NCBI GenBank assembly: GCA_030690175.1 | Contig: JAUYHE010000006.1 | Span: forward strand, 1-42,607 | Reading direction: 5' to 3' | DNA from: a bacterium | GTDB taxonomy: Bacteria > Patescibacteriota > Microgenomatia > Woykebacterales > RBG-16-39-9b | Length of the DNA stretch: 42,607 nucleotides | Part shown: piece after piece, positions 4,481 to 42,355 of the stretch | Layout of the letters: each line of letters begins with the position of its first letter | How positions within the stretch are numbered: the stretch's first letter is position 1 | The notes under the pieces: model-generated | The model's database searches: none | What the model saw: only the letters and a program-made list of their open reading frames with translations | Told to the model about the DNA's origin: nothing | Position numbers and translations under genes: made by a program

Positions 4481-4706
4481 ACCTTTTGACTAAATCAAAG
4501 ACCGTCTTGGTAGGTTGAGCACCTACCCCCAGCCAGTAACGATAGCGCTCTGTATTTACAACTACTTTAGCCGGATCAACATTAGGGTTGTATTGACCGA
4601 TGATCTCGATATAGCGACCGTCTCTTTTTGCTTGCTTGCTAGTGACCACGATACGGTACTTTGGTTGCTTTTTTGCTCCGGTTCTCATTAATCTTACTTT
4701 TACCAT
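4464..4706 (-). CDS. rpsP: 30S ribosomal protein S16
   Basis: 80 aa starting MVKVRLMRTGAKKQPKYRIVV, the typical S16 N-terminus. Confidence 0.95.
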   Translation of the reverse strand: MVKVRLMRTGAKKQPKYRIVVTSKQAKRDGRYIEIIGQYNPNVDPAKVVVNTERYRYWLGVGAQPTKTVFDLVKRYERAG

Positions 4707-4718
4707 AATTGAGTGTGT

Positions 4719-4747
4719 ATTCTAATTTGTTTACGACCAATTTTCAA
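4719..4747 (-). promoter_or_regulatory. Promoter of the rpsP operon
   Basis: Minus strand: TTGAAA (4747-4742), 17 nt, TAGAAT (4724-4719). There are 12 nt to the rpsP ATG and no SD. Confidence 0.55.
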
Positions 4748-6169: not shown

Positions 6170-6384
6170 TGCTCTTCCTTTTTTACTTTAGTTACCTTTG
6201 CCTTTTGTTTTGGAGCGATTACCAAGTTTTCTTTATAATAACCACAATTTAGACAGGCACGGTGACCCATCCGAGGATTACCGCATTTTGGGCAAGTTGA
6301 TAACCTGATGGGAGAATATCGTTTACTTGCTCGTCTTTTACCACTTCTAGCTCTTGATATTTTTCTTTTAGGTAATGCTGCCAT
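6166..6384 (-). CDS. rpmF: 50S ribosomal protein L32
   Basis: 72 aa with [19 protein letters not shown] and a CxxC...CxxC zinc ribbon. Confidence 0.9.
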
Positions 6385-6427: not shown

Positions 6428-8443
6428 TTAATCAGGCGTTACAAGAGGCTGCTTTTCCAATCCCTTTCTCAGACTTTTAGTGAAATTAACTTTTTGTTGG
6501 TTAAAAACTAAATTAGCTTCATTTCTGGCGGCGTTGATTAAAGGAAGGTCGGTTAACTCGGCAATTTTAAAGCTAGGTATTCCTGATTGGGCGGTGCCAA
6601 ATATATGTCCGGGACCGCGCATTTTTAAGTCTATCTTCGCTAGTTTCAGACCTAGGTGGTGTTTCTCCAATGAAGAAAGCCTTTCGATCACGTTTTCGGT
6701 ACTGCTTTCAGTAAAAAGCAAACAATACGCCTGCTGGTCACTTCGACCGACGCGACCGCGTAGTTGATGTAGAGACGCTAAGCCAAAGCGTTCTGCCGCC
6801 TCGATCATCATTACGGTGGCGTTTGGAACGTCAATTCCCACTTCGACAACTGGCGTGGCTACTAAAATATTCAGGTTGTTGTCTCTAAAATTTTCCAGGA
6901 CGATCTCCTTTTCGGAATGTTTCATTTTACCGTGCAGCAAGCCAAGTTTTAGATCTGGAAACACCTCTGTTTTAAGGTGACTATATTCTTCCTTGGCTGC
7001 TTTGGCTGTACTTAGCGTTTCCGAAGGTTCAATAATTGGGCAGATAATAAAGGCTTGCCTTTTTTCTAAAATTTTATTTCTCAAAAATTGATATGCTCTA
7101 TTTCTTTTCTCTGGTGGAACAACAAAAGTTTTTATCTTTTTTCTTCCTTGCGGTAGTTCGTCTAGGGTTGAGATATCCAGATCTCCAAATATTACTAAAG
7201 CGAGACTACGTGGTATTGGTGTTGCTGTCATTGTAAGCACGTGGGCCCTTTTTGCTTTGGTACGGAGCAGGGCTCTTTGCTCAACTCCAAAACGGTGTTG
7301 TTCATCGATAATGACCAGCGCCAGATTATCGAAAGTCACATTTTTGGATAAAATCGCGTGGGTGCCGACGATTATATCAAACGGCCCCCTCTTCTTACTA
7401 CTTGATGTTCGAATAGAAAGTTTTACACCCAAAGGAGAAAGGATACTAGTTAGGGTTTTGAGATGCTGCGCAGCAAGGATTTCTGTCGGCGCCATAAAAG
7501 CAGTCTGATAACCGTTGAGGTAAGCAACGTAGGCAGCAATAGCGGCAACCACTGTTTTACCACTGCCAACATCGCCCTGTAGAAGACGGTTCATAGATTT
7601 CCCAGCCGATAAATCGGCTAAAATTTCCTTTATAACTTTGTTTTGAGAAGAGGTAAGGTTGAACGGAAGGTTCGAAATAAGGGTGAGAATCTTTTCCTGA
7701 TGGATATTTAACGGCCTCGCTTTCACTAGTTTCTCCCAGGACGCCTTTCTCTCTATGGCCTGCAAACTAGTTATGAAGATTTCCTCAAATGCCAGGCGTC
7801 TTCGAGCTTGTTTGACTTGTTCTTCACTGTTTGGAAAATGAATTTGCCACAAAGCTTGCCTCTTTGTAATAAGGCTATTTCTAGATCTCGACTCACTTGA
7901 AAGGGTTTCATCAATTTTACCTACTACCATGGGTAACATTTCCTTTATCTTATTTCTTAACCATTTTGATGAAAGCCGGCTTGTTTCTGGATAAATAGGC
8001 ACCAGGCCTTTAGTGTGAAAACCACCTTTTGTACCGGGCTTGTTGAGTAATTCATAATCGGGATTAATTAACGTGGGCTTGTGAGAGAAATAATCAATCT
8101 TTCCAGCTAAGCCAATTTTAGCACCAGGAGTAACTGTTTTTACTAAAAATGGCTGGTTAAACCAAACAGCTTCAATACTTGCTGTTCCATCATTTATTGT
8201 CGCGAAGGTGAGGTTTTTACCATACCTAGTCCGAATATTTTGGATCTGCTCTACTTTTCCGGCTGTAGATACTCTCTCCCCTACTTTTAACGCGTTTATT
8301 TTTACGGGAGTGCCTAAATTCTCGTAACGAAAAGGATAGTGATGAACCAAATCTTCGACAGTCTCTATTTTTAATTTCTTTAGTCGGCTAGTGTGAAAAC
8401 TACCTACTTTTGGGATTTGTCCAATTGGAGTGTTTAGATTCAT
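6428..8443 (-). CDS. recG: ATP-dependent DNA helicase RecG
   Basis: 671 aa with an N-terminal OB wedge region and helicase motifs GDVGSGKT, DEQHRFG and TATPIPR. Confidence 0.95.
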   Translation of the reverse strand: MNLNTPIGQIPKVGSFHTSRLKKLKIETVEDLVHHYPFRYENLGTPVKINALKVGERVSTAGKVEQIQNIRTRYGKNLTFATINDGTASIEAVWFNQPFLVKTVTPGAKIGLAGKIDYFSHKPTLINPDYELLNKPGTKGGFHTKGLVPIYPETSRLSSKWLRNKIKEMLPMVVGKIDETLSSESRSRNSLITKRQALWQIHFPNSEEQVKQARRRLAFEEIFITSLQAIERKASWEKLVKARPLNIHQEKILTLISNLPFNLTSSQNKVIKEILADLSAGKSMNRLLQGDVGSGKTVVAAIAAYVAYLNGYQTAFMAPTEILAAQHLKTLTSILSPLGVKLSIRTSSSKKRGPFDIIVGTHAILSKNVTFDNLALVIIDEQHRFGVEQRALLRTKAKRAHVLTMTATPIPRSLALVIFGDLDISTLDELPQGRKKIKTFVVPPEKRNRAYQFLRNKILEKRQAFIICPIIEPSETLSTAKAAKEEYSHLKTEVFPDLKLGLLHGKMKHSEKEIVLENFRDNNLNILVATPVVEVGIDVPNATVMMIEAAERFGLASLHQLRGRVGRSDQQAYCLLFTESSTENVIERLSSLEKHHLGLKLAKIDLKMRGPGHIFGTAQSGIPSFKIAELTDLPLINAARNEANLVFNQQKVNFTKSLRKGLEKQPLVTPD

Positions 8444-8558: not shown

Positions 8559-9761
8559 TTATTTCCAAATAATTTTTACTGACTTCCTCTTACCCACGTC
8601 GATAATAGTTTCGTTACCACTAATTTTTTTAATTAATTCTCGTGGATTGGCAACGAGCCGGCCGTCAACTTTTAAACCGCTGCTGCTTGCTAGTCTTACT
8701 GTTTCTGACACGCTGGAAGTTGCGCCAGAAATAGTAGCTAAAGACGCGTATGAAATAGGTAAAATAGAGCGTGATTGCACGGACGTTTGAACTGTACTGG
8801 TACGCTTCCCTTTTTGAAAAACTCTTTCGAATTCGATCGCGGCGGTTTTTGCGATTTTGTTACCGTTATAAATGCGCACGATCTCGTAGGCTAATTTTTT
8901 CTTAGCCTCCATTGGATTTAGCTCGACCTTTTTAATACTTGATTCAATTTTGCTAATTTCTGCATCGGAAATATCGGTCGCTAATTTCAGATATTTTATT
9001 ATCAAATTATCATTTATTGACATTATTTTACCGTACATATCATTTGGGTCGTTATCGATGTCCACCGTGTTATTGAAGGACTTACTCATTTTTCGGCCGT
9101 CAGTACCCTCCAAAAGTGGAGTCGTGATTACCAGTTTTTCTTTGGTTTTGTATATCTTTACTAGTTCTCGGCCAATGAGCATATTAAAGGTTTGATCAGT
9201 TGCCCCAATTTCTACATCTGCGTCCAAGGCCACACTATCGTAACCTTGTAATAATGGGTAGAGAAATTCCGAAACTGAAATAGGGTTCCCCTTTTTTAAC
9301 CTTTCCTGAAACAAATCCCTTTCCAATAACTGGGCTAGGGTAACGTGACTCACAATTTCGAGGAATTCTCTCGAATTTATTTTGTCCCACCAGGTTGAAT
9401 TATAAGTTATTTTGGGCGGATTGCTTGAAAAGCTAAGAATTTTTTGAACTTGGTTTTTGTAAGTATTGCTGTTTTTGACTATCTGTTCGCTGGTTAACAC
9501 CGGTCGTCGGGTATCTCTGCCAGAGGGGTCGCCAATCGCTCCAGTAAAATCTCCAACTACCAGAGTTACTTTATGGCCAAGATTTTGAAAGCTTTTTAGT
9601 AGCCGCAGCGGCACCGCGTGTCCAATATGAATTTTGGCGCCAGTGGGATCAATACCAAAATAAATCCGCAGTTTACGCCCACTTTTAAGCACTTCTTCGA
9701 GGCTTTCTTTTGATGGATAAATGTGTTCTGTCAACCGAAAAATTTGTGTTAAATCTGTCAT
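8559..9761 (-). CDS. tyrS: Tyrosine--tRNA ligase
   Basis: 400 aa with class I motifs HIGH (HIGHAVPL) and KMSKS, and a C-terminal S4-like domain. Confidence 0.95.
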   Translation of the reverse strand: MTDLTQIFRLTEHIYPSKESLEEVLKSGRKLRIYFGIDPTGAKIHIGHAVPLRLLKSFQNLGHKVTLVVGDFTGAIGDPSGRDTRRPVLTSEQIVKNSNTYKNQVQKILSFSSNPPKITYNSTWWDKINSREFLEIVSHVTLAQLLERDLFQERLKKGNPISVSEFLYPLLQGYDSVALDADVEIGATDQTFNMLIGRELVKIYKTKEKLVITTPLLEGTDGRKMSKSFNNTVDIDNDPNDMYGKIMSINDNLIIKYLKLATDISDAEISKIESSIKKVELNPMEAKKKLAYEIVRIYNGNKIAKTAAIEFERVFQKGKRTSTVQTSVQSRSILPISYASLATISGATSSVSETVRLASSSGLKVDGRLVANPRELIKKISGNETIIDVGKRKSVKIIWK

Positions 9762-9769
9762 ATCTTCAC

Positions 9770-9798
9770 ATATTATCGATTTTTGTGGTATAATACAA
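9770..9798 (-). promoter_or_regulatory. Candidate tyrS promoter
   Basis: Minus strand: TTGTAT (9798-9793), 17 nt, TAATAT (9775-9770). There are 8 nt to the ATG and no SD. It overlaps the divergent PBP promoter. Confidence 0.45.
9786..9794 (+). promoter_or_regulatory. Extended -10 promoter of the PBP gene
   Basis: TGgTATAAT, with 17 nt to the ATG at 9812 and no SD. Confidence 0.5.
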
Positions 9799-14360: not shown

Positions 14361-15332
14361 TTAAAATTGGGTGAGAAATCGCAGGTCGTTCTTGTAGAGA
14401 ACTCTTATATCGTGGATTCCGTACTTAATCATTGCCAATCGATCAAGCCCCATGCCAAAGGCCCAACCGCGGAATTTATCTTGGTCAATTTTGCCGTTTT
14501 TTAACACATTTGGGTGGACCATGCCAGCACCTAGGATCTCAATCCACCCTTTTTCAGGATGAAACACTTCGACCTCAATCGAAGGTTCAGTATAAGGAAA
14601 ATTGTGCCCGTAAATTCTAATTTTAGACTTCTCGCCGAAAAATTTTTTTGCAAAATAATCTAAACTACCTAATAGGTCTGTCATACTCGTTGTCGCATCT
14701 ACTAGCAAACCTTCCAGTTGATAAAAGGACGGTAGGTGGGTAGCATCTGGCATATCGCGTCGGTAAGCTCGGCCGGGAAAAAGAACCCTTACTGGCGGCT
14801 GATGAGTTTCCAAATACCTAACCTGCATATTACTGGTGTGAGTGCGTAGAAGCGTATCTGTATTTATATAATAAGTTTGTTGGACATCTCTAGCTGGGTG
14901 ATCCGGAGGCATATTTAACTTCTGAAAATTATAAAGATCGCTATCAACTTCGGGCCCATCTACCCAACTAAAACCAAGATAGTGAAAAATCGCCTTCACC
15001 TCTTCAATTACTAAAGTGAGCGGGTGCAAACTACCAACGTCGGTTTTTTTACCCGGAGTAGTAACATCTACATCTGGTCTAATTTTTTCTGATTCGGTTT
15101 TGGTTTTATCGGCTAAAACCCTTTCGATTGCTGAGCGGACCTCGGTGACTTTTGATCCAATCCCCCGTCTTTTAGATACAGGAAGTTTTGGAATCTCCTG
15201 AGTGACCCTTACAAGAAAACCGTTCCGGCGACCTAAGTATTTTATACGTAGTTGGTCAATATCTCTGGGAATTTTGACACCCTGCGCTTCCTCGTAAAAA
15301 TTAGAAAGAATTTTATCCAGATCTATCTTCAT
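14361..15332 (-). CDS. pheS: Phenylalanine--tRNA ligase alpha subunit
   Basis: 323 aa with class II motifs (HPLT..., FPGRAYRRD, GAGMVHPNVL, GWAFGMGLDRLAM). Confidence 0.95.
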   Translation of the reverse strand: MKIDLDKILSNFYEEAQGVKIPRDIDQLRIKYLGRRNGFLVRVTQEIPKLPVSKRRGIGSKVTEVRSAIERVLADKTKTESEKIRPDVDVTTPGKKTDVGSLHPLTLVIEEVKAIFHYLGFSWVDGPEVDSDLYNFQKLNMPPDHPARDVQQTYYINTDTLLRTHTSNMQVRYLETHQPPVRVLFPGRAYRRDMPDATHLPSFYQLEGLLVDATTSMTDLLGSLDYFAKKFFGEKSKIRIYGHNFPYTEPSIEVEVFHPEKGWIEILGAGMVHPNVLKNGKIDQDKFRGWAFGMGLDRLAMIKYGIHDIRVLYKNDLRFLTQF

Positions 15333-15343
15333 ATATCACTCTG

Positions 15344-15352
15344 ATTCTATCA
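15344..15352 (-). promoter_or_regulatory. Proximal extended -10 promoter of pheS
   Basis: Minus strand: TGaTAGAAT. There are 11 nt to the pheS ATG and no SD. Confidence 0.45.
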
Positions 15353-16156: not shown

Positions 16157-16669
16157 TTACCCTTTTTTATACTTTAAACTCAAACTTAAATTTCTACCAA
16201 CTAGTTTTGCCCCCACATCCTTTTCAGCTATATCAACCAGTTTTTCCTCCAGGCTTTTTAAGATTTTATATCCAAATTCGGGATGAATAATTTCCCGGCC
16301 GCCAAATTTTACCGTTAGTTTTACCCTGTCTCCCCCGGACAGGAAATGTCTTGCTCGATCGGTTCTGACCTGCAAATCATGTTCACTCATGAGGGGTCCT
16401 AGCCAAATCTCCTTTGTGGTTGCTTCTTTAGTTTTTCTTTTGGCGACTCGTTCCTTCTTTGCTTCCTCGTATTTAAATTTTTTAAAATCGACTACGCGCA
16501 CTACTGGTGGATTTGCCTTTGGAGCAATTTCAACTAAGTCTAAAGACGCGTCTCGTGCTTTTTCCCGGGCTTCTTGAATAGAAACTATACCTACCTGCTT
16601 CCCTTCTCGATCAATAAGGCGTACTTCTTTGGCAAGGATATTATGGTTGATTCGGTAGAATCTTCCTAT
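16157..16669 (-). CDS. infC: Translation initiation factor IF-3 (non-canonical ATA start)
   Basis: The tracked ORF holds only the C-domain. The same frame stays open upstream and encodes the N-domain (RINHNILAKEVRLIDREGKQVGIVSIQEAREKARDASLDLVEIAP). It is bounded by an in-frame TAA (16675-16673). ATA at 16669 lies 10 nt after GGAGG, with no ATG/GTG/TTG available. Confidence 0.85.
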   Translation of the reverse strand: MGRFYRINHNILAKEVRLIDREGKQVGIVSIQEAREKARDASLDLVEIAPKANPPVVRVVDFKKFKYEEAKKERVAKRKTKEATTKEIWLGPLMSEHDLQVRTDRARHFLSGGDRVKLTVKFGGREIIHPEFGYKILKSLEEKLVDIAEKDVGAKLVGRNLSLSLKYKKG

Positions 16670-16736
16670 TTTTTAGGTTCCTCCTTGGACCTTTGTAAAA
16701 AGAAACTATCCATATTTTAAAAGAATTAGAATGCAT

Positions 16737-20595: not shown

Positions 20596-21255
20596 TTATT
20601 TTGTAATTTTTACCGGTTCTATGTTAATTGGAATTGGTGGCAATGCGTCCTTCTGAATTTTGGTTACTTGACCTTTGCCCCCTTCCACCACGCCGTCTAT
20701 TATACCGTACTTCTTGGCCTCACTACTAGTCATAAAGAAATCACGTTCAGTGTCTTTCTCTACCTGTTTGATGGGTTGTTTTGCTTCCCGAGACAAAATT
20801 TCGTTTAATTTTCTTTTAAGTTTTAGGATTTCGTCAGCGTGAATCTTAATATCAGTAGCTTGGCCGGAGATTTCGGTCATCGGCTGATGGATCATTATTT
20901 TTGAATTCGGTAGGGCAAAGCGTTTACCGCGTTTACCACCGGCCAAGATCACTGCTGCTCCGGAAGCGGCCATTCCCGCGCAAACAGTTTGTATATCCGG
21001 TCGCACGTATTTCATAGTGTCATAAATTGCTAATGTGCTGTGCACGTAACCACCCGGCGAGTTTATATAAATACTAATATCCTTCTCGCTGTTTTCATTT
21101 TCAAGGTACAGGAGTTCGGCAATGATAATATTTGCCGTTTCATCAGTAATCGCACCGCCAATAAAAATAATTCTTTCTTCAAGAAGCCGGCTGTAAATAT
21201 CATAGGCCCGCTCACCTCTTGGGTCGCGTTTTATAACCATTGGTATCAATTCCAT
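20596..21255 (-). CDS. clpP: ATP-dependent Clp protease proteolytic subunit
   Basis: 219 aa with [21 protein letters not shown] and the catalytic context GMAASGAA. Confidence 0.95.
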
Positions 21256-21265
21256 AACAGGAGGA

Positions 21266-21274
21266 ATTATACCA
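21266..21274 (-). promoter_or_regulatory. Extended -10 promoter of clpP
   Basis: Minus strand: TGgTATAAT, then TCCTCCTGTT (10 nt), then ATG. There is no SD. Confidence 0.55.
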
Positions 21275-22188: not shown

Positions 22189-23073
22189 CTACTTTATCGT
22201 TATCGAACCAGCAATGGATTCGATTTGAATGTCTATGCGGGTAAAGACTTTATCAAAATCGCCTGTCTTATAATCTCCATCTTCCTTTTTAAATCGAGGG
22301 GCAATCGCAAGGTTCTTCACTTTTGAGTCTATTTTAATTCTGGCCTCGACCTCCTCTGGTATTGATATTTTTAAGTTTGATGCCTTTGTTTTTATCCGGG
22401 CTCTTGTAGAATAAAGTTTTCCAAATTTTATATTCAAATCAGAGGCTTGCGAATTTACCTCTAAGTAGTCCACTCTTAGAGAGGCTAAATTTATTTGTTC
22501 TTTTGAAGCTACAGTGTTTATTTGAATTTCCAAGGGAATTTGGTTTGTTAAGAACAGATCCGTATTGTTTTTTAAGCTTGAAATAAACGGCAATCCCGGT
22601 GGCGAGCCTTGACTTATTCGGATAATTTTTTGGCCGAAAATTTCTTCCGTTGAAATTACCGGCTTGACAGCCGCCTTGCTAAAAGAGATATCACCGCTGA
22701 TTAATTTACTTGGATCGGGGCCATCCTTGATAGTTAAATTTGTAGCCGGCATGTCAATAAATATTTTTGCTTTAGTTAAGTTACCAAGTGGTTCGGAAAG
22801 TAGTAAGTGCGAAGTCGCTAGTGGGTTTTTAGTAATTGGGTTGACTGCAAAAATAATTGGAATAATGAAAATTATTACCAGTAAAATAATAGTTGTTTTT
22901 AGGGATATAGATTGACCAATTAAATATTCAATTCCGATTAGTATCAGAATTACCGGCCAGAATTTCCACAAGTTATTCCAAATCGACCAGGGCAAGACAC
23001 CAAAATTGTTTAGAAGGAAAACAGCCCCCAAAACAATTAAAATAATTGGCGCAAATCTAAATTTTTTTAGCAT
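22189..23073 (-). CDS. Membrane protein with LiaF-like N-terminal TM region and beta-rich C-terminal domain
   Basis: 294 aa with 3-4 N-terminal TM helices (FAPIILIVLGAVFLLNNFGVLP...) and then a repetitive beta-strand-like region. The family call is tentative. Confidence 0.4.
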   Translation of the reverse strand: MLKKFRFAPIILIVLGAVFLLNNFGVLPWSIWNNLWKFWPVILILIGIEYLIGQSISLKTTIILLVIIFIIPIIFAVNPITKNPLATSHLLLSEPLGNLTKAKIFIDMPATNLTIKDGPDPSKLISGDISFSKAAVKPVISTEEIFGQKIIRISQGSPPGLPFISSLKNNTDLFLTNQIPLEIQINTVASKEQINLASLRVDYLEVNSQASDLNIKFGKLYSTRARIKTKASNLKISIPEEVEARIKIDSKVKNLAIAPRFKKEDGDYKTGDFDKVFTRIDIQIESIAGSITIK

Positions 23074-23081
23074 CTAATTTA

Positions 23082-23110
23082 AGGATAATCTGGAAAACAA
23101 AGGCTGTCAA
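23082..23110 (-). promoter_or_regulatory. Promoter of the LiaF-like gene
   Basis: Minus strand: TTGACA (23110-23105), 17 nt, TATCCT (23087-23082). There are 8 nt to the ATG and no SD. Confidence 0.55.
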
Positions 23111-25958: not shown

Positions 25959-27341
25959 CTAGTCCTCCCAAAATTGGGTACTGTAACCTCTACGCGCTAA
26001 TATTTTTTTCAGTTTAATCATCGGTGTGTAAGTTGGCAGAATATAGAGCGTATCTCCCTTTGGTACCTCCTCAATTGATGCTTCAAGGGCGGTTTCTAGA
26101 TCAGTTTCTATTTCTGATTCCGCTGCGAGACCAGCGTATTTTAGTCTTAAAGCCATATCCGCGGCTCTGATACCGCTCACGCGAATTTTTTTTAGATTAG
26201 GATCAGTAACAAGATCTTCAAAATCAACATCCCAGAGCCACGAAACATCCCGGCCGTCAGCGATTAGATCGTTGATTGCAATTAACACGTATTTATCATT
26301 TCGGTTTGTACCTAGTAAGCGCAAAATCTCGTTAAATCCAGAAGGGTTTTTTACTAAGGCAATAAATAATTTTTTTCCGTTGACATTTATTCTTTCTGTT
26401 CGTCCAAAGGCAGGGGTAGTCGCGTTTAGCGCCCTTTTGATAACACTTAAATTAATTCCACAGGCGACGGCAGCCGAGACAGACGCAAGAACGTTATAAA
26501 TATTATAAACTCCAGGTAAGGACACATCCAATTCGAAAGTGCCTTTTGGAGTAACTATTCTTGCCTTGAAACCATTTTCCTGGTCTAAATAAACATCACT
26601 AGCGTACACATCCGGTTTGGGTCTTTTTAAACCACAACTAGGACACCTATATTTACCTAGATGCGATAAATAAACCTGATCAAAACGCAGTTCGCTTTGG
26701 CAAGAAATACAACTAGTGAAATCAGCAGCGTGGGGTAGCTTGCCTAGAGAAAGGCCGTCATCTTCAATACCGTAGTAAATCACCTTGGCCTTAGTTGAGC
26801 CAGCCAGGTGTGATACCGAGTGGTCATCACTATTAAGCACAATTGTCGTTTCGGAGTCAAGTTGCAAAAGCGCTTTTTGCCATATTTTCCGAATTTTATC
26901 CACTTCCCCATACCGATCGAGTTGATCGCGGAAAAGATTGTTAAATACGATTACTTTAGGTTCAACGCTTTGGACAGCGATGGGAATCGTGACCTCATCC
27001 ACTTCTAGCAGTGCCAATTTTTTCTTTCTACTGGTGAAGCTAAAATTTTCAGCTAATGTGCCGATCAGGCCCCTTAACAGATTTGAACCGGAGCGGTTGT
27101 GGATAAAATTAATGTTGGCCTCATTTAGTATATTTCCTAGTAACCGTGACGTAGTGGTCTTACCGTTGGTACCAGTAACCAGCAGCGCGCCATCGTAATA
27201 TTTACCGAGCTTTTTTAGGGCGTGAGGATCAATATATTCAGCTGCCAAACCAGGAGCAGCAGTCGCGCCCCCACCAGACAGCCTAATCACCAACCGCAGC
27301 GTCTTAGCGGCTAAAACGGCCGTCATAAGTCTAGCGTTCAT
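25959..27341 (-). CDS. murT: Lipid II isoglutaminyl synthase, Mur-ligase-like subunit MurT
   Basis: TGTNGKTTT P-loop, a Cys4 ribbon (CISCQ...CPSCG) and a DUF1727-like C-terminus. The ATG at 27341 (MNARLMTAVLAAK) is preferred over the upstream TTG. Confidence 0.85.
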   Translation of the reverse strand: MNARLMTAVLAAKTLRLVIRLSGGGATAAPGLAAEYIDPHALKKLGKYYDGALLVTGTNGKTTTSRLLGNILNEANINFIHNRSGSNLLRGLIGTLAENFSFTSRKKKLALLEVDEVTIPIAVQSVEPKVIVFNNLFRDQLDRYGEVDKIRKIWQKALLQLDSETTIVLNSDDHSVSHLAGSTKAKVIYYGIEDDGLSLGKLPHAADFTSCISCQSELRFDQVYLSHLGKYRCPSCGLKRPKPDVYASDVYLDQENGFKARIVTPKGTFELDVSLPGVYNIYNVLASVSAAVACGINLSVIKRALNATTPAFGRTERINVNGKKLFIALVKNPSGFNEILRLLGTNRNDKYVLIAINDLIADGRDVSWLWDVDFEDLVTDPNLKKIRVSGIRAADMALRLKYAGLAAESEIETDLETALEASIEEVPKGDTLYILPTYTPMIKLKKILARRGYSTQFWED

Positions 27342-27348
27342 GAAAGTA

Positions 27349-27377
27349 ATTCTAATATAGTTATTGGTAATTGCCAA
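27349..27377 (-). promoter_or_regulatory. Promoter of murT-gatD
   Basis: Minus strand: TTGGCA (27377-27372), 17 nt, TAGAAT (27354-27349). There are 7 nt to the ATG at 27341 and no SD. Confidence 0.55.
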
Positions 27378-28901: not shown

Positions 28902-29966
28902 CTAGTCTTCCCAATATCCAGATGTGAGCCTTCTATAATACCTTCTAAGCCTTTCAGCGGCTCTGTAAACGTAGTATTTTGAATTTAGAGGGAAATCCTG
29001 CGCTCGAATATAACTATACTTAAAACCACCAAATCCTCGCTTGAAAAGACTGAACCCATACCAGGGGTGCCCAGGATGGAAATTTTTATCCTTGACCACT
29101 CCCCAGAAATTATAATACTTACAGCCGCGTTTCTTAGCTTCTTTCATGGCCTCCCATTGCAAAGAATACCCTACTGACTGAGCTTCTTTTGTATTTGAAG
29201 CGGCGTGGAGGTAGTAAGTCATTTCTCCATAGAACATAATCATCGCCATCGAAAGAGTAACGTCGCCTTTTTTGGCTACAAAAAGTTTCTCTTGGTCCTC
29301 CTTTGAAAAAATTTCAAACTGTTTCAGATAGTAGTTTTTGGGGTGGTTCACAAATCCTTTTCTGGTGGCGGTTGAGTAAAGCAGGCCGACAAATTTTTTA
29401 GCATCACTCATCTCATTGGAGATCTCCACAGTTATACCCTGCTTAGGCTCGTGGCGAATAAGATAACGCGTAGTTTTACGCATACCGGCAAGCAACTCTT
29501 CTTCTGCTTTATCCAGAGGCAAAAGCCAAGCATCTTCTACCTGGACAAAAGTTACCGCTCCCTTAAAGCCGATTTTGGCAAAAATTTGTCTGTTCTCTTC
29601 TGTGTTTTCAAGCAAGGGATCGATTTTTATAAACGTGCATTTTTCCTTTTCGGCCAAGGTTTTTAACGATTCAAAAAGCACTTCAAATGTTTGGGGGTCT
29701 GTCCAATCAATAAGCGGCCCTCGCGGACAATAAATATAATTGCTAAGCCTGCTCGAATATTTAACCGCCAGGCAAATACCAACCAAACTTCCTTTTTTGA
29801 AAACGCCAAGTCGCCAAATCCGACGCCCAACACTAATATTGAATTTTCCCCAATTCCAGGACTGCAAAAAGGTGTTTGGTGAGTTTGAAAGAGAAAAATC
29901 TTCCCAGGGTTTTTTGTCGTCGATTTCTTTTACCTCATACATACTCATGGAATTAAAATTATTCAA
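28902..29966 (-). CDS. FemAB-family peptidyltransferase (FemX/MurM-like, aminoacyl-tRNA dependent)
   Basis: 354 aa with the layout and motifs of lipid II amino-acid transferases (FLQSWNWGKF..., TTRYLIR, YYLHAAS). It overlaps the DegT gene by 8 nt. Confidence 0.85.
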   Translation of the reverse strand: MNNFNSMSMYEVKEIDDKKPWEDFSLSNSPNTFLQSWNWGKFNISVGRRIWRLGVFKKGSLVGICLAVKYSSRLSNYIYCPRGPLIDWTDPQTFEVLFESLKTLAEKEKCTFIKIDPLLENTEENRQIFAKIGFKGAVTFVQVEDAWLLPLDKAEEELLAGMRKTTRYLIRHEPKQGITVEISNEMSDAKKFVGLLYSTATRKGFVNHPKNYYLKQFEIFSKEDQEKLFVAKKGDVTLSMAMIMFYGEMTYYLHAASNTKEAQSVGYSLQWEAMKEAKKRGCKYYNFWGVVKDKNFHPGHPWYGFSLFKRGFGGFKYSYIRAQDFPLNSKYYVYRAAERLRRYYRRLTSGYWED

Positions 29967-31155
29967 ACTTATTTACAAACTCGACTACCCTGCCCGCTTC
30001 TTCCATAGTCATCCCTAAATAATTAGGTAGATTAAGTGTTTGTTCGGCTGTCCTCTCGGCATTTGGACAAGTTCCTTTTTGGTAGCCGAGTTTTTCCTCG
30101 TCAACACCTTTTGGGTACACCGGCACGTTGTACCAATTACTAAACCAAAAGCGTCTTTTTCTAGCTTCAGCGAAAACTCTAGACGCATCGCGGTGGAGAA
30201 CCACAAAACGCAGATAAATTCCTTCGTGTTCTGGTAGCAACCGGAACGCAGGGTTTTTTATATTTTCAAAATAAAACTTGGCGATTTTCTCCCGATTCTT
30301 GTTGTACTCATCCAAATGATTGAATTCCCCCAAGGCTATTTGAGCTAGTACAGGCGGCATCGCGGCTGGATACCAAGTGGGTTGCTCTCCCCTTTTTTCT
30401 TTTTCACTTATTACTACGTTAAAAAAATCAAAATCATTTAGCTTTTTAATAAATTTGTAGCCGGTTTTGTTGAAGTAAATACGCCGCAGTAGCGCTCGCC
30501 AAGTGAAAAAATTTACAAATTCTTCTGTCAGTCGCGGCAAGGGTAAACTTTTGAGCGCTGCGGTCTCATTAATCGTATTTTTTATCAGGTTCTCGTTTTT
30601 TATGATCAGCGCGCCACCGGCCAGGCTAGAGATCACTTTTTCTCGTCCAAAGGAAAGAATGGCTGCGTCGCCAAACGTGCCTAGCTTTTTACCATTATAG
30701 GTAGCGCCAAGAGCGTGAGCGCAATCCTCAATCAAGTACAGATCGTGTCTTTTAGCGATTTCGGTAAGCTCTTGAAGCGGTCCTGGACGGCCAAAAGTAT
30801 GCTGGACTACGATGGCCTTGGTTTTTGGCGTAATTTTTGCCTCAACCAGTTTCGGATCTATATTTAGCGTTCCCGCGTCTATATCTACGTAAATAGGGGT
30901 TGCTCCAGACCAAATGATGGGGTTTGGCACGGCGTTGCAAGTGTAAGCTTGGATAATTACTTCGTCAGCAGGCCCGATCCCAGCCGCTTTAAGGACTAAA
31001 TAAATAGCGCTTCTTCCAGAATTTACCGGGAAAACACGGAGTCCAAAATAGCTTTCGAGCCTTTTTTGTAGCTGTAGTACTGGATCTAGGCCTTCGTTTT
31101 CGCGAGCGTTGAAAATGCTTTTTGCAATGGTTTTGATTACGTTGATTTTGGCCAT
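29959..31155 (-). CDS. DegT/DnrJ/EryC1/StrS-family PLP-dependent aminotransferase
   Basis: 398 aa with DEVIIQAYTCNAV, IEDCAHALGA and SFGREK (Schiff-base Lys context). Confidence 0.9.
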   Translation of the reverse strand: MAKINVIKTIAKSIFNARENEGLDPVLQLQKRLESYFGLRVFPVNSGRSAIYLVLKAAGIGPADEVIIQAYTCNAVPNPIIWSGATPIYVDIDAGTLNIDPKLVEAKITPKTKAIVVQHTFGRPGPLQELTEIAKRHDLYLIEDCAHALGATYNGKKLGTFGDAAILSFGREKVISSLAGGALIIKNENLIKNTINETAALKSLPLPRLTEEFVNFFTWRALLRRIYFNKTGYKFIKKLNDFDFFNVVISEKEKRGEQPTWYPAAMPPVLAQIALGEFNHLDEYNKNREKIAKFYFENIKNPAFRLLPEHEGIYLRFVVLHRDASRVFAEARKRRFWFSNWYNVPVYPKGVDEEKLGYQKGTCPNAERTAEQTLNLPNYLGMTMEEAGRVVEFVNKFE

Positions 31156-34094: not shown

Positions 34095-34376
34095 TTAGTT
34101 AAAAATCGAAGTAGTGTCAAAAGCCCCAGTCAAATAAGCCCCAACAATTACTAATATTACTGTTAAGTACAAAACGCCCATTGCCACCCAGAGTACTTTA
34201 TTAAAAATCTTCGGAAACGCTCGATTCTCCGTTTGACTAGGTTTGGGGGCTTCTTTAGAAATTAGTGTGGAACCTGGTCCCGCAAGTACTAAATCGCCTA
34301 AAAAAATACGGTCGTGTGGACACCAGTAAGTATTACTTGCTTGGGTTGCTTCGTATCCACAGATTGGGCAGTTCAC
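34095..34376 (-). CDS. Zinc-ribbon protein with C-terminal TM helix
   Basis: 93 aa with a GTG start. CPICG...WCPHD is followed by a hydrophobic helix (VLWVAMGVLYLTVILVIVGAYL). Confidence 0.4.
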   Translation of the reverse strand: MNCPICGYEATQASNTYWCPHDRIFLGDLVLAGPGSTLISKEAPKPSQTENRAFPKIFNKVLWVAMGVLYLTVILVIVGAYLTGAFDTTSIFN

Positions 34377-34382
34377 ATTTCT

Positions 34383-34411
34383 ATTTTATACCGTTCTTCT
34401 AACGGTGTAAA
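34383..34411 (-). promoter_or_regulatory. Candidate promoter of the zinc-ribbon gene
   Basis: Minus strand: TTTACA (34411-34406), 17 nt, TAAAAT (34388-34383). There are 6 nt to the GTG at 34376. Confidence 0.5.
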
Positions 34412-34448
34412 ACATCACGCAAACTTGTAATTTTTATTACGAAGAGGG

Positions 34449-35597: not shown

Positions 35598-36368
35598 CTA
35601 CTCCTCCCGCAAATGCTTGCCAGTAAGTTGTAAAAATACATCCTCAAGGGTGGCCTTTTTTACTTCCCGTTTCCTCTTAAAACCTGTTGCCAAAAGCTCT
35701 TCAATGAGATCGTGCGGCGTGCCAATTTCTATAATTTTACCCTGATCCATAATAGCAACTCGATCGCAAAGCTCTTCAGCTTCTTGCATATAATGAGTGG
35801 TCAGAATAATCGTTCTCCCCTCCGCGTGAATTTTACGAATTTCTTCCCACAGATTCACCCTCGCTTGAGGATCCAGACCGGTTGTGGGCTCGTCGAGGAA
35901 AATAATTTTTGGGTTATGAATTAAAGTAGTCGCTAGGGAAAAACGCTGCCTTTGTCCTCCGGAAAGTTTTTGCCAGTAAGACTTATTCTTTTCCTCAAGA
36001 GAGAATTTTTTTAGAATTTCAATCGGGTCCCCAATCTCTACTTGATAAAGGCCAGCAAACATTTTCAGCAACTCCACTAGCGTCAAATCAGGATAAAAAC
36101 CCGAGTCTTGCAATTGGACACCGATGCTACTTTTCACTTTCCAAGAGTCGTGCTCGATATCCAGTCCATCGACGATTACTTTTCCAGATGTGGGTTTGCG
36201 CAATGTCTCGATTATTTCCAAGGTAGTGGTTTTTCCGGCGCCGTTGGGACCTAAGAGTCCAAATACCTCCCCTTCCCTTACTTCAAAAGAGATATTATCC
36301 ACCGCTACCAAATCTTCGTAATTTTTAGTGAGATTTTCTACCTGGATAATAGTTCTTGTACCTTTCAT
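35598..36368 (-). CDS. ABC transporter ATP-binding protein
   Basis: 256 aa with Walker A GPNGAGKTT, signature LSGGQRQR and Walker B IIFLDEP. Confidence 0.95.
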   Translation of the reverse strand: MKGTRTIIQVENLTKNYEDLVAVDNISFEVREGEVFGLLGPNGAGKTTTLEIIETLRKPTSGKVIVDGLDIEHDSWKVKSSIGVQLQDSGFYPDLTLVELLKMFAGLYQVEIGDPIEILKKFSLEEKNKSYWQKLSGGQRQRFSLATTLIHNPKIIFLDEPTTGLDPQARVNLWEEIRKIHAEGRTIILTTHYMQEAEELCDRVAIMDQGKIIEIGTPHDLIEELLATGFKRKREVKKATLEDVFLQLTGKHLREE

Positions 36369-36376
36369 AAGAAAAA

Positions 36377-36406
36377 ATTATATAATTAACAGCCGATTCC
36401 TATCAA
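36377..36406 (-). promoter_or_regulatory. Promoter of the ABC operon
   Basis: Minus strand: TTGATA (36406-36401), 18 nt, TATAAT (36382-36377). There are 8 nt to the ATG and no SD. Confidence 0.55.
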
Positions 36407-38485: not shown

Positions 38486-39631
38486 TTAATAGTTTACTGC
38501 TGACTGGGCATCAACTCTACCCCAACCAAATTTATTGTCTTTTCCAGAAGTACCAAGATCTTTCGCTGTTTTAAATAAAGCGTTTTCGACTTGATCAGGG
38601 TTATACCCAGAGTGAACACTTCTAACCAGACCAACAGTGGCTGTAACAATTGGAGTCGCCATACTAGTACCAGAAGCGGTAAGATACCCAGAACCTAGCC
38701 AGGAAGAGAAAATTCCAACCCCGGGAGCGGTTATATCTACGCCTTTACCCCGCCCTGAAAAACTAGCAATTCTATCACGTGAATTAACTGCTCCAACTGT
38801 AGTTGAATAGCTTATACAACCTGGCAGAGAAACCCCAGAACTACCGCTATTTCCAGCAGCTACCACCACCAAGACGCCTCTATCTCTGGCGTGCTTTATT
38901 GCAGTTGTCATCTCCGGATAAACGCTGTCGCAAAAACTTTTGTAAAGGTAAGGAGCTCCTGTACCCAAACTTAAATTTACGGCATCTACTCCTGGATCGT
39001 CAGCGTTTCCGGATACCCCATCTGGACCATCTACAACCCAATAAATACCGGCGATTATATCCGTAAAGTAACCCGACCCATATTTATCTAACACCTTTCC
39101 AACTAAAATCCCCACACTAGGAGCCGCTCCTTTTGCACTGGAGTTTACTCCATCCGCAGTAATAATTCCGGCCACATGGCTCCCATGACCATTATCATCA
39201 GTGGGATCCTCATCACCATTGACAAAATCTCTTCCGCCCAAGTAACTTGAGGAAAGTTCGGGGTGAGTATAGTTGTAACCTGTATCCAAAATAGCAACTT
39301 TTCTTCCTTGCCCACTGTTGCCGCTATTTTGAACTAGATTTGCCCTTATCTGGCTATTTGCCCTTGTATCTGTTGCCATTACCCGAATATCCTCCGGCAA
39401 ACCTAGACTTCTAGCAACTGACAAAGGGCATACGAAAGCCTTTATTTCTTTAACCTTTCTTACCTGCCGGCAACCGCTTTGCTCAGCTCTCTGGGCTTCC
39501 TCGCGGCTGTGGGCAAGCAGACGAACCTTTCCTTCACGTCTAACTTTTTGCGTGTTGGCTGATAGAGTACTTACAGAGAAAACCAAAATCAGAAGTGAAA
39601 AACAGACTGGGGTCAAAAATTTTAGCTTCAT
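38486..39631 (-). CDS. Secreted subtilisin-like serine protease (peptidase S8)
   Basis: 381 aa with a signal peptide and the catalytic triad contexts AILDTGY, HGSHVAGI and GTSMATP. Confidence 0.9.
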   Translation of the reverse strand: MKLKFLTPVCFSLLILVFSVSTLSANTQKVRREGKVRLLAHSREEAQRAEQSGCRQVRKVKEIKAFVCPLSVARSLGLPEDIRVMATDTRANSQIRANLVQNSGNSGQGRKVAILDTGYNYTHPELSSSYLGGRDFVNGDEDPTDDNGHGSHVAGIITADGVNSSAKGAAPSVGILVGKVLDKYGSGYFTDIIAGIYWVVDGPDGVSGNADDPGVDAVNLSLGTGAPYLYKSFCDSVYPEMTTAIKHARDRGVLVVVAAGNSGSSGVSLPGCISYSTTVGAVNSRDRIASFSGRGKGVDITAPGVGIFSSWLGSGYLTASGTSMATPIVTATVGLVRSVHSGYNPDQVENALFKTAKDLGTSGKDNKFGWGRVDAQSAVNY

Positions 39632-39638
39632 TAAAAAA

Positions 39639-39667
39639 AGTATAACTTATAGCCGAAACCATGTCAA
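39639..39667 (-). promoter_or_regulatory. Promoter of the S8 protease gene (predicted leaderless)
   Basis: Minus strand: TTGACA (39667-39662), 17 nt, TATACT (39644-39639), TTTTTTA (7 nt), then ATG at 39631. There is no SD. Confidence 0.7.
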
Positions 39668-39678
39668 AACCCTTTATC

Positions 39679-39707
39679 TTGTTCAAGCAGTGGTAATCTT
39701 GTATAAT
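39679..39707 (+). promoter_or_regulatory. Promoter of the tRNA-Gly/tRNA-Arg pair
   Basis: TTGTTC (39679-84), 17 nt, TATAAT (39702-07). There are 13 nt to the tRNA 5' end. Confidence 0.6.
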
Positions 39708-39720
39708 TCCAATGTGTTTT

Positions 39721-39797
39721 GCGCGAGTAGCTCAATTGGCCAGAGCGTCTCCCTTCCAAGGAGAAGGTTGAGGGTTCGAGTCCCTTCTCGCGCTCCA
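39721..39797 (+). tRNA. tRNA-Gly (anticodon UCC)
   Basis: 77 nt, loop CTTCCAA, discriminator U, encoded CCA. Confidence 0.9.
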
Positions 39798-39909: not shown

Positions 39910-39953
39910 TCCTAGCGTCTACAATATAATCCCTAGCACTCTCTTTACAAAGG

Positions 39954-39962
39954 TGCTAAAAT
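39954..39962 (+). promoter_or_regulatory. Candidate extended -10 promoter of lon
   Basis: TGcTAAAAT with 8 nt to the ATG at 39971. An alternative TATAAT at 39925-30 would give a 40-nt leader. Confidence 0.4.
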
Positions 39963-39970
39963 AGTTGCAC

Positions 39971-42355
39971 ATGGAGAAAAAAGAAACAAAACACAAACTA
40001 CCTTTGATACCGGTTCGCAATGTCGTCGTGTTTCCGCACGCAACTGTATCTATTTCAATAAAAAGGGATAGATCAGTTAAAGCTCTTGAGGCCTCCTTAA
40101 ACAAAACCAAAACTCTTTTTATGGTCATGCAAAAAAGGCAAGAGGTGGATAATCCCGTCAGCACCGATCTATTTGATGTTGGTACCATCTCAAAAATTAC
40201 TTCGGTTCAGAGGCTTCCCGATGGCGTGATAAATGTTTCTGTGGAAGGAATTACTAAAGCAAAAACAAAAGAATACACGAAAACGGATCCTTTTTTTGAA
40301 GCAGAAGTAGTGGAGACATCAGAACCAGAATACTCTCAAGAAGAACTTGAATCTATTATCCGTCCGGTAGTCGAGCAGTTTCGCCAATCAATTTCTCTTG
40401 GAAAAGCTGTTCCTTTAGACCTAATACCTAGTATTTTTGACTTGTCAAACCCTTACCAGACGGTCGATATGATAATTCTCAACCTAGATCTAAATTCCTT
40501 GGAAAAACAAACCCTTTTGGAAGCGCCAAATTTTAAATCAAGGGTAAAGATACTTACCGAATATTTGTCTAAGGAGATCTCAATCCTCCAAACCGCTCGT
40601 CGCATCCAAGATCAAACCGTTGAGGAAATAGGTAAAGGTGCAAAAGAGGCATTTTTGCGGGAACAGTTAAAAACGATTGAGAAGGAACTTGGTGTCAAGG
40701 AAGAAAAAGAAGAGTTTAGTGATCTCGAAAAGAAAATAAAGGCGGCCGGAATGCCTAAGGAAACCGAGGGAAAATCTCTAAAAGAACTTGATAGACTACG
40801 AAAAATGCACCAATTTTCCCCAGAAGTTTCTTATATCCGAACTTACCTAGATTGGTTGATTGAACTTCCTTGGAATAAAAAATCGGAAAGTAAAATTGAT
40901 GTCAAAGGCGCCGAAAAAATCTTGAATCAGGATCATTACGGTCTTAAAAAGATTAAAGAAAGAATACTGGAATATCTGGCGGTACACAAGTTAACCGGAA
41001 AAATAAAAGGTCCGATTCTTTGTTTCGTTGGACCACCAGGAACTGGTAAGACTTCGGTTGGGAAATCAATTGCGCGAGCGCTTGGCCGCAAATTTGTAAA
41101 AGTTTCCCTAGGCGGGATACGTGATGAAGCGGAGATACGTGGCCACCGTCGTACCTACGTCGGCGCCCTTCCAGGTCGAATAATTCAGGCTATGAAAGAC
41201 GCTGGTACTAGAAACCCAGTCTTTATGCTAGATGAGATCGATAAAGTCGGCTTTGATTTTCGGGGCGATCCTTCTTCAGCTTTACTTGAAGCCTTGGATC
41301 CAGAGCAAAATCACTCGTTTTCTGATCATTATCTAGAAGTTCCTTTTGATTTATCCGCCGTGATGTTTATCACTACAGCTAATATCCTGGATACTATTCC
41401 CGCCCCCCTTCTAGATCGTATGGAAATCATTGAATTTCCTGGCTATACTGAAGAGGAAAAGGCTCGTATTGCTACGGATTACCTTTTACCCAAGCAACTG
41501 GAAGCCCACGGTTTAGACAAAAATAAACTTACGATCAGTAGTGACGCGAAATCAGCCATAATTTCAAAATACACTCGGGAAGCCGGAGTACGTAACCTAG
41601 AAAGAGAACTGGCGGCTATTTGCCGAAAGGTTGCCCGGGCAATTGCCGAGAAGAAAATAAAAAAAACCGAAGTAATAGCCAGAAACTTGCGAAAATATCT
41701 TGGCCCCGAAAAATTTGAACCGTGGGCGACTGAGAAAAAAGACGAGATTGGAATTGCGACCGGACTTGCCTGGACCGAAGCTGGTGGTCAAGTACTTAGC
41801 GTAGAGGCTACGGCCATGCCCGGACGCGGTAACCTGATATTGACTGGCCACCTGGGCAACGTCATGAAGGAAAGTGCTCAAGCAGCCCTATCATACGCCC
41901 GAAGCAAAACTAAGGACCTGGGGATAAAAGAAAACTATTTCAAAGATAAAGATATTCATATTCACGTTCCGGCTGGGGCTATTCCAAAGGACGGTCCTAG
42001 TGCTGGTATTACTATGGCTTCTGCCCTGGTAAGTCTGGTAACAAAGATACCGGTGCGAAAAAGTATTGGTATGACTGGGGAGGTAACCCTGCGAGGAAAA
42101 GTTTTAGAAATAGGCGGCGCCAAGGAAAAGATTTTAGCCGCCCACCGGGCTGGTTTGCGTGAGGTGATCTTACCTAAGAAAAATAAAAAGGATCTGGAAG
42201 AAATTCCACCGAAAGCCCGTAAAGAATTAAAATTTACCTACGTGGACAATATGGACGATGTGCTAGCTCGATCGCTTTTGTCGGACCCCTTCTCCAGAAG
42301 ACAGGAAGAAGACACCAAACCAGCAATATCTCCCCCACCAATGCCTTTTGCGTAA
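39971..42355 (+). CDS. lon: ATP-dependent Lon protease
   Basis: 794 aa counted from the ATG at 39971. It has an LON N-domain, an AAA+ module (GPPGTGKTS, FMLDEIDK) and a protease domain (DGPSAGITMASAL). Confidence 0.95.
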   Translation: MEKKETKHKLPLIPVRNVVVFPHATVSISIKRDRSVKALEASLNKTKTLFMVMQKRQEVDNPVSTDLFDVGTISKITSVQRLPDGVINVSVEGITKAKTKEYTKTDPFFEAEVVETSEPEYSQEELESIIRPVVEQFRQSISLGKAVPLDLIPSIFDLSNPYQTVDMIILNLDLNSLEKQTLLEAPNFKSRVKILTEYLSKEISILQTARRIQDQTVEEIGKGAKEAFLREQLKTIEKELGVKEEKEEFSDLEKKIKAAGMPKETEGKSLKELDRLRKMHQFSPEVSYIRTYLDWLIELPWNKKSESKIDVKGAEKILNQDHYGLKKIKERILEYLAVHKLTGKIKGPILCFVGPPGTGKTSVGKSIARALGRKFVKVSLGGIRDEAEIRGHRRTYVGALPGRIIQAMKDAGTRNPVFMLDEIDKVGFDFRGDPSSALLEALDPEQNHSFSDHYLEVPFDLSAVMFITTANILDTIPAPLLDRMEIIEFPGYTEEEKARIATDYLLPKQLEAHGLDKNKLTISSDAKSAIISKYTREAGVRNLERELAAICRKVARAIAEKKIKKTEVIARNLRKYLGPEKFEPWATEKKDEIGIATGLAWTEAGGQVLSVEATAMPGRGNLILTGHLGNVMKESAQAALSYARSKTKDLGIKENYFKDKDIHIHVPAGAIPKDGPSAGITMASALVSLVTKIPVRKSIGMTGEVTLRGKVLEIGGAKEKILAAHRAGLREVILPKKNKKDLEEIPPKARKELKFTYVDNMDDVLARSLLSDPFSRRQEEDTKPAISPPPMPFA

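Follow-up and report, generated by a model that had tools for sequence, protein, structure and literature searches.

The stretch of DNA considered here (42,607 nucleotides, hereafter the window) is contig C49 of a genome bin of 690 kb in 67 contigs, with 43% GC and the standard genetic code. Judging by gene content and relatives, the source genome belongs to the candidate phyla radiation (CPR, Patescibacteria), and the nearest named relatives of its Lon protein are Saccharibacteria-, Levyibacteria-, Roizmanbacteria- and Daviesbacteria-type CPR genomes (54-59% identity). Our subject is a promoter arrangement found at ten genes of the window, in which the -10 box lies close before the start codon, and which a preliminary description of this DNA, made from its letters, had taken to mean that operon-first genes are set up as leaderless mRNAs.

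Promoters and start codons in the window

The gene of an S8 protease is preceded on the minus strand (39629..39667) by TTGACA (39667-39662), 17 nt, TATACT (39644-39639), the 7 nt TTTTTTA and the start codon ATG (39631-39629), with no Shine-Dalgarno (SD) site, which is exactly the geometry that had been described. The same site was picked up independently by a promoter scan, with 11/12 matches. Each site was scored by its -10 matches together with a -35 or a TGn element (extended -10), with 20,000 randomly chosen intergenic positions of the genome as the reference, which for the S8 promoter gave p=0.0016.

The nine other promoter-to-ATG geometries listed in the preliminary description are likewise all present at their positions, on the minus strand save for lon. 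Spacing is shortest at murT (27339..27377), which reads TTGGCA-17-TAGAAT (27354-27349)-N7-ATG (27341), and is 8 nt at four genes: the LiaF-like gene (23071..23110; TTGACA-17-TATCCT at 23087-23082, N8, ATG at 23073; p=0.0055), the ABC ATPase (36366..36406; TTGATA-18-TATAAT at 36382-36377, N8, ATG at 36368; p=0.0016), lon (39954..39973, plus strand; the extended -10 TGcTAAAAT at 39954-39962, 8 nt, ATG at 39971; p=0.0055) and tyrS (9759..9798; TTGTAT-17-TAATAT at 9775-9770, N8, ATG at 9761; p=0.14), the last being the weakest of the ten. Longer spacers are found at clpP (21253..21274; TGgTATAAT at 21274-21266, a pyrimidine-rich N10, ATG at 21255; p=0.0016), pheS (15330..15352; TGaTAGAAT at 15352-15344, N11, ATG at 15332; p=0.0055), rpmF, encoding L32 (6382..6424; TTGACA-17-TATAAT at 6401-6396, N11, ATG at 6384; p=0.0001), and rpsP, encoding S16 (4704..4747; TTGAAA-17-TAGAAT at 4724-4719, N12, ATG at 4706; p=0.0055).

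Nine of the ten sites therefore score at p<=0.0055, that is, within the top 0.6% of random intergenic positions, tyrS being the exception, and the binomial probability of at least nine such sites among 48 starts is 6e-12. None of the ten starts has an SD tetramer (GGAG, GAGG, AGGA, AAGG or GGGA) 3-13 nt upstream. The gene identities given in the preliminary description are borne out by Pfam in all ten cases (Peptidase_S8, MurT, LiaF-like, ABC_tran, Lon, TyrRS, ClpP, L32, PheS and S16). The label "operon-first" fared less well, as by spacing it does not suit two of the genes: the murT promoter lies within the 3' end of a co-directional upstream gene (stop at 27361, gap 19 nt) and the -35 of rpsP within the last codons of another (gap 24 nt).

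Wrongly annotated start codons, with true starts lying downstream behind SD sites, had been named as a finding that would undo this picture, and they were not seen. Pfam domains begin at residues 1-13 in L32, S16, Lon, the LiaF-like protein and ClpP, and the N-terminus of the S8 protease, as we read its sequence, resembles a signal peptide. The orthologues of murT, the ABC ATPase, clpP, rpmF and rpsP start at the aligned methionine in G010, a complete genome of 915 kb that belongs to the same family but to a different genus. No SD site stands before any downstream in-frame start of the ten genes, and the only upstream in-frame starts are TTG codons, one within the murT promoter and one preceding the lon ATG by two codons.

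An extra candidate of the same kind is found at 34374..34412 on the minus strand (TTTACA-17-TAAAAT-N6-GTG; p=0.005), at the start of a 93-aa open reading frame (ORF; 34095-34376) with a low coding score, and it is uncertain whether this ORF is a true gene.

Genome-wide excess and conservation of start-adjacent -10 boxes

Genes of the whole source genome (748) were called with a simple codon-usage model in which the longest ORF was always chosen, so that the choice of start cannot be biased towards a motif; gene and start calls made in this way are crude, and some start calls are certainly wrong. Genes were counted as operon-first where the upstream gap was at least 50 nt, or at least 30 nt if the neighbour was divergent (n=328), and compared with an operon-internal set (n=273). 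A strict -10 box was defined as TANNNT with no more than one mismatch to TATAAT, spacing being measured from the end of the box to the start codon. By these definitions a box ends 6, 7, 8, 9, 10 or 11 nt before the start in 13, 10, 8, 10, 8 and 9 operon-first genes, respectively, the count per position farther upstream being about 3, which makes a total of 58 of the 328 against 16.2 expected (p=8e-16). Operon-internal genes have 10 boxes where 7.4 are expected, which is not significant. The histogram of distances between -10 hexamer and start codon that had been suggested as a check on the leaderless reading thus has a sharp peak at 6-11 nt, and has it in operon-first genes only. This excess corresponds to about 13% of all operon-first genes and, within the limits of the crude gene calls, to 25% of those with validated starts.

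The boxes have the further features of promoters. The exact hexamer TATAAT is enriched about 7-fold per position at 6-11 nt, and among the other 19 permutations of its letters the only clearly enriched ones with more than a few sites are ATAATT and TAATAT, which are shifted or variant forms of the -10. A -35 with at least 4/6 matches lies at a distance of 16-18 nt from 48% of the 58 boxes, compared with 15% of all such hexamers in the genome (p=2e-9), and TGn precedes 33% of them, compared with 7.7% genome-wide (p=3e-8). This enrichment of -35 and TGn elements identifies the boxes as real promoters, and the 58-box class is one of genuine promoters of the sigma-70 type, most of its members having an upstream gap of at least 50 nt or a divergent or tRNA neighbour.

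Starts can also be validated by comparison, using reciprocal best hits to G010 that have co-linear N-termini and are operon-first in both genomes. Among the 53 pairs obtained, a box stands 6-11 nt before the start in 13 of the 53 in the source genome and in 15 of the 53 in G010, where 2-5 would be expected, and the presence of a box is correlated within orthologue pairs (odds ratio 4.7, p=0.03). In G010 as a whole the peak is sharper than in the source genome and lies at 6-7 nt, with 31, 24, 18, 20 and 11 boxes at 6, 7, 8, 9 and 10 nt among 502 operon-first genes; the total at 6-11 nt is 108 boxes against 24 expected (p=1e-35). Operon-internal genes of G010 are boxed as well (33 against 7.5 expected).

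Six further CPR genomes, represented by 200 kb each, were passed through the identical pipeline. G022, which belongs to the same class but to another family, has a box excess of 16% of its operon-first genes (p=9e-6), in G072 and G062 the excess is 7-8%, and G080, G052 and G044 have none; the lack of a peak in these three means that the signal is not created by the pipeline. The arrangement is at least as strong in G010 and in another family of the class as in the source genome and is weaker or absent in other CPR lineages. It is a property of the lineage and not of the window alone.

Individual loci were followed through 17 genomes of the family, which represent 16 genera and include the source genome (G000). 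At rpmF, TATAAT-N7-11-ATG is found in 11 of the 17, often with TTGACA 17 nt ahead, the spacing of the orthologues clustering at 7 and 10 nt; in the others the box lies farther upstream, and one of these has a clear SD site. At lon, about 12 of the 17 genomes have TANNNT at 6-10 nt from the ATG, mostly as TGCTAAAAT or TGCTAATAT at 7-10 nt, and the remaining genomes have longer leaders, one with a clear SD site. At clpP, TATAAT-N8-11-ATG, mostly preceded by TG, is present in six of the genomes, counting the source. The flanking sequence at all three loci has diverged while the geometry has been kept, and such retention amid sequence turnover is the pattern predicted by selection on the geometry itself. 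In G010 the arrangement is also found at the orthologues of murT (TGcTAAAAT-N7-ATG), of the LiaF-like gene (TGgTAAAAT-N7-ATG), of rpsP (TTGAAA-18-TAAAAT-N8-ATG) and, with a weaker box, of pheS (TGtTATTCT-N7-ATG), and it is not conserved there at the ABC ATPase or at tyrS. The best S8 match in G010 is only 33% identical and was rejected as an orthologue, so that only distant homologues can be compared for this gene; one of them, from the Parcubacteria (L004), reads TAAAAT-N6-ATG.

The lon promoter is embedded in an inverted repeat at 39933-39959 (plus strand) that resembles CIRCE (controlling inverted repeat of chaperone expression, the heat-shock operator type of HrcA). It reads CTAGCACTC-N9-AGGTGCTAA, three mismatches from the consensus TTAGCACTC-N9-GAGTGCTAA, and has the -35 in its loop and the -10 TAAAAT overlapping its right arm. 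This CIRCE-like arrangement is visible at lon in most of the 17 family genomes (loci L204-L220) and is the sole good CIRCE match in the source genome, which has an HrcA gene on contig C19 (PF01628, 67 bits). Such a repeat suggests that lon is probably under heat-shock repression by HrcA.

At clpP, five family genomes (G004, G016, G002, G009 and G011; loci L188, L197, L198, L199 and L202) have an upstream ORF (uORF) of 13-25 codons that copies the first eight codons of clpP (M-D/E-L-V-P-M-V-I). In four of the five the start of the uORF (ATG, or ATT in L202) comes 10 nt after a TATAAT-like box, with TGn ahead in three, which is the leaderless position; the exception is L197, where the box lies about 40 nt upstream and the uORF has a GAGGA of its own. 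A conserved hairpin with three compensatory pairs spans codons 5-9 of the uORF, and a purine-rich, SD-like stretch precedes the real clpP in the uORF genomes. The uORF looks like the product of a 5' duplication that would have turned a leaderless gene into a leadered one, possibly regulated by the uORF.

The preliminary description had placed all three proteases of the window in the leaderless class. The geometries at clpP, lon and S8 stand, but the link with protease function is not significant and is anecdotal. A protease-specific rule was rejected, as it would concern three genes only, and clpP and lon are leadered in other genera of the family, where an SD site or an upstream ORF is sometimes present.

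The Shine-Dalgarno system and the 16S rRNA

An intact anti-SD sequence at the 16S 3' end, which had been proposed as a further check, is present both in the source genome and in the relatives sampled. The 16S 3' end on contig C28 (C28:1-70) reads GGATGGATCACCTCCTTTCT, including the anti-SD GGATCACCTCCTT, its helix 45 and 3' end are identical to those of the relative G005 over the aligned stretch, and every sampled relative has a canonical anti-SD. The tetramers GGAG, GAGG and AGGA peak 4-11 nt before starts in operon-first and operon-internal genes alike, whereas only 1 of the 58 genes of the box class has a 4-mer SD. The strong SD sites that had been cited for other genes of the window are present, including AAGGAGG before the probable ATA start of infC. 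Since the anti-SD is kept and SD sites are enriched, two modes of initiation coexist, an SD-led one and, in a class almost devoid of SD sites, a presumed leaderless-type one, as the preliminary description had supposed.

A second 16S gene, on contig C25 of the bin and outside the window (C25:7150-8101, minus strand), ends in GGAATATCTCTTTTA and not in GGATCACCTCCTTA, and is therefore without CCUCC. Loss of the anti-SD from the source genome, which this end might suggest, was rejected because the 16S end on C28 is canonical and matches that of G005. The C25 gene is only 72% identical to every 16S of the family, and the two proteins of the contig that have a match in G010 are about 36% identical to it, whereas orthologue pairs whose starts coincide have a median identity of 60%; because of these identities, C25 probably entered the bin by mistake, from an organism of Parcubacteria type that has no anti-SD. 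Its 16S tail fits the anti-SD-less Parcubacteria of Tsurumaki et al. 2022 (PMC9297842). An AGAGA-type SD, which would match the C25 tail, has no positional enrichment upstream of starts.

Two genes of the translation apparatus deserve mention. infC (16669-16686, minus strand) has an apparent non-canonical ATA start (16669) with AAGGAGG (16686-16680) ahead of it, and the GTG at 16501, taken as its start by the ORF finder, would cut off the conserved N-terminus of initiation factor 3 (IF3). The homologue of ribosomal protein S1 (C40:3766-4830, minus strand) matches only about positions 4-349 of the 516-position rpsA model, below the cut-off of the model, in almost every one of the 17 family genomes, and resembles the short S1 of Gram-positive bacteria; a short S1 may be relevant to the handling of leadered mRNAs with weak SD sites.

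Predicted transcripts, alternatives and known systems

Mapped transcription start sites in 49 species are centred 7 bp after the -10, with more variable positions, possibly for technical reasons, in the single CPR species of that set, Nanosynbacter lyticus (PMC12641261). Under this rule, transcripts of genes with a spacing of 6-7 nt (S8 and murT) are predicted to begin at the A of the AUG or 1 nt before it, a strict reading gives predicted leaders of about 2 nt at 8 nt (LiaF-like, ABC, lon and tyrS), and at 10-12 nt (clpP, rpmF, pheS and rpsP) the prediction is a leader of 2-5 nt and not of zero. The checks proposed in the preliminary description that were made (distance histogram, start codons and anti-SD) all favoured the leaderless reading, but clpP, rpmF, pheS and rpsP are better described as putative short-leader genes.

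Two observations bear on these predicted positions. At tRNA genes throughout the genome the same -10 consensus keeps a distance of 10-14 nt from the mature 5' end and never comes nearer, a calibration in keeping with transcription that starts no more than about 10 nt from the box and with promoters that generally abut their products. The base at -1 of the box class is enriched in pyrimidines (0.64-0.67 against 0.48-0.55), which fits, weakly, a pyrimidine-purine start step at the A of the ATG. Pyrimidine-only spacers, which would force initiation at that A, were considered and rejected as a rule, since they hold at the clpP orthologues but not generally (spacer purine fraction 0.34-0.54). The tRNA promoters, such as TTGTTC-17-TATAAT at 39679-39720 of the window, before tRNA-Gly at 39721, are predicted to leave leaders of only about 4-8 nt for RNase P, and the promoters of tRNA-Gly and the S8 protease stand back to back within 90 nt.

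The mechanism that we propose begins with sigma-70-type promoters (TTGACA-17-TATAAT or TGnTATAAT), the -10 of which ends 6-12 nt before the start codon. RNA polymerase would start about 7 nt after the -10, making the 5' end coincide with the A of the AUG or precede it by 1-5 nt, so that the transcript would have no space left for an SD site and would be translated by 5'-end-dependent initiation of the leaderless type (70S/IF2-fMet-tRNA). Downstream genes of operons, together with a comparable share of operon-first genes, would use ordinary SD pairing with the intact anti-SD. We consider it likely that the operon-first genes of the class are expressed as leaderless or near-leaderless mRNAs, the positions of transcription starts and the mode of translation being what we infer from the promoters, and roughly one in five operon-first genes (about 13-25%) appears to be built with a promoter against its start codon.

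Several observations weigh against this view. Spacing in the source genome is flat over 6-11 nt and not peaked at 6-7, so that many members have predicted leaders of 2-5 nt; about 16 of the 58 members would be expected by chance; and murT and rpsP could also be read from the transcript of the gene upstream. Start codons give no help, as ATG is commoner in the class than among the remaining operon-first genes (p=0.004), yet its share of 81% does not differ significantly from the 74% of operon-internal genes (p=0.3), and start-codon bias was therefore dropped as evidence. Moreover, a strict split of the operon-first genes gives about 18% with a start-adjacent -10, 20% with an SD site and about 62% with neither a strict -10 nor a 4-mer SD, so that the two modes leave most genes unexplained. 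Many of the latter must be wrong start calls or genes with weaker signals, and for part of them there may be a third, unrecognised context of initiation; examples in the window are the genes at 6428-8443 (minus strand), 9812-12343 (plus strand) and 29959-31155 (minus strand).

The flat spacing leads to the most serious of the alternatives, which we regard as unlikely but deserving of attention, namely that the promoters are real but most members of the class are short-leader mRNAs with 5' untranslated regions of 2-6 nt, translated by some other SD-independent route (such as an unstructured 5' end or 30S binding near it) and not by classical 70S leaderless initiation. Four of the ten window sites, at 10-12 nt, fit this, as does the usual start 7 nt after the -10 (PMC12641261), and several of the 10-11 nt rpmF spacers end in ...TCGT or ...TCGAT before the ATG, which can be read as a CG start step 2-3 nt upstream. 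However, the peak in G010 is at 6-7 nt, an enrichment of pyrimidines at -1 is what would be expected if the A of the ATG were the start site, and published start maps of leaderless-rich bacteria such as Deinococcus deserti also hold many starts near the AUG (PMC4007540).

It seems to us improbable that the genes are mainly expressed on longer transcripts, produced by read-through or at promoters farther upstream, and that the start-adjacent promoters are minor or conditional; the genes chiefly concerned would be murT (19 nt behind a co-directional gene) and rpsP (24 nt). A second TATAAT is present 39 nt upstream at lon, and the many boxed operon-internal genes of G010 suggest that internal promoters are common there. 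Against this, most members of the class have wide gaps or divergent or tRNA neighbours, the conserved element is the start-adjacent box whereas the upstream TATAAT is not seen in the lon regions of close relatives, and none of the ten window genes has an SD site with which a long transcript could be served. Finally, we think it very improbable that the matches arise by chance in AT-rich DNA, or that they are a start-proximal AT-rich enhancer of translation, and are not promoters: upstream regions are indeed AT-rich and chance accounts for the share of the class given above, but operon-internal genes of the source genome have no peak, other permutations of the hexamer have little or no comparable enrichment save for shifted or variant -10 forms, the boxes tend to be accompanied by -35 and TGn elements, and under the same pipeline no peak arises in three CPR genomes.

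Expression as leaderless or near-leaderless mRNAs is the reading that we retain; the promoter arrangement is real, conserved and lineage-wide, and its probable mechanism is well understood. Going further, we propose tentatively, and without calling it probable, that one branch of the CPR, comprising the source family and one or more further families of its class, uses leaderless-type initiation as a principal mode of gene expression, readily changed in evolution, beside an intact SD system. On this view rpmF, lon and clpP would be leaderless in some genera and leadered, with an SD site, in others, and clpP would have switched by duplication of its 5' end, the old leaderless start surviving as a conserved, structured uORF. 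If this is true, these genomes would offer a natural series for studying conversion between modes of initiation and would be a first documented case for Patescibacteria. Differences between genera at the same gene would provide comparative material on how initiation modes evolve. In practical terms, gene finders that assume SD sites will misplace starts in such genomes, for instance by extending the murT and lon ORFs to a TTG. CPR bacteria are uncultivated and have reduced ribosomes. That about one fifth of their operon-first genes are apparently built for leaderless-type initiation, with the anti-SD kept, constrains models of their translation and is a complement to the anti-SD loss already published for Parcubacteria.

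In full-text literature searches we found no paper on leaderless initiation in CPR, Patescibacteria or Saccharibacteria. The model leaderless mRNAs are those of lambda cI and Tn1721 tetR. With these, and with the leaderless mRNAs of mycobacteria and Deinococcus (PMC3898074, PMC4007540 and PMC4633059), the class described here would share recognition of a 5'-terminal AUG without an SD site, and a review describes binding of the 70S ribosome to an AUG at or near the 5' end (PMC9031893). The class differs from them in that many of its sites predict a leader of a few nucleotides.

Parcubacteria without an anti-SD have been described (Tsurumaki et al., RNA 2022, PMC9297842), and the source genome is like them in phylum, in reduced ribosomes and in the SD-independent initiation that is implied; unlike theirs, its 16S keeps GGATCACCTCCTT and its SD motifs are enriched, only the probably mis-binned C25 being without the anti-SD. 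Genomes of group B in the GeneMarkS-2 classification (Bacteroidetes-type) also have genes without SD sites, but the A-rich motif there stands before every gene, even inside operons, which excludes a promoter role (PMC6028130), whereas the signal in the source genome is the -10 consensus with -35 or TGn and is confined to operon-first genes.

The closest likeness is to group C, comprising genomes that mix leaderless and SD genes (1028 of 4769 bacteria, mostly Actinobacteria and Deinococcus-Thermus), in which the leaderless share is reported as 25-50% of transcripts (PMC6028130), and to "TA-led" genes, the accepted sign by which leaderless genes are recognised computationally being a TANNNT about 10 nt before the start (Zheng et al. 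2011, PMC3160421). In both cases a Pribnow box stands 6-10 nt before operon-first starts without an SD site, while operon-internal and other genes have SD sites. The source genome differs in its CPR lineage, its size of 0.7 Mb and its 43% GC, in using a full TATAAT, often with TTGACA or TGn, where the high-GC phyla have a bare TANNNT, and in a broader spacing (6-11 nt) and a lower predicted share, about 13-25% of operon-first genes, against 25-50% of transcripts in group C. With these differences, the source genome carries the defining sequence features of the group C type, with a predicted share at the low end, and extends a known mechanism to a new lineage without adding a new principle.

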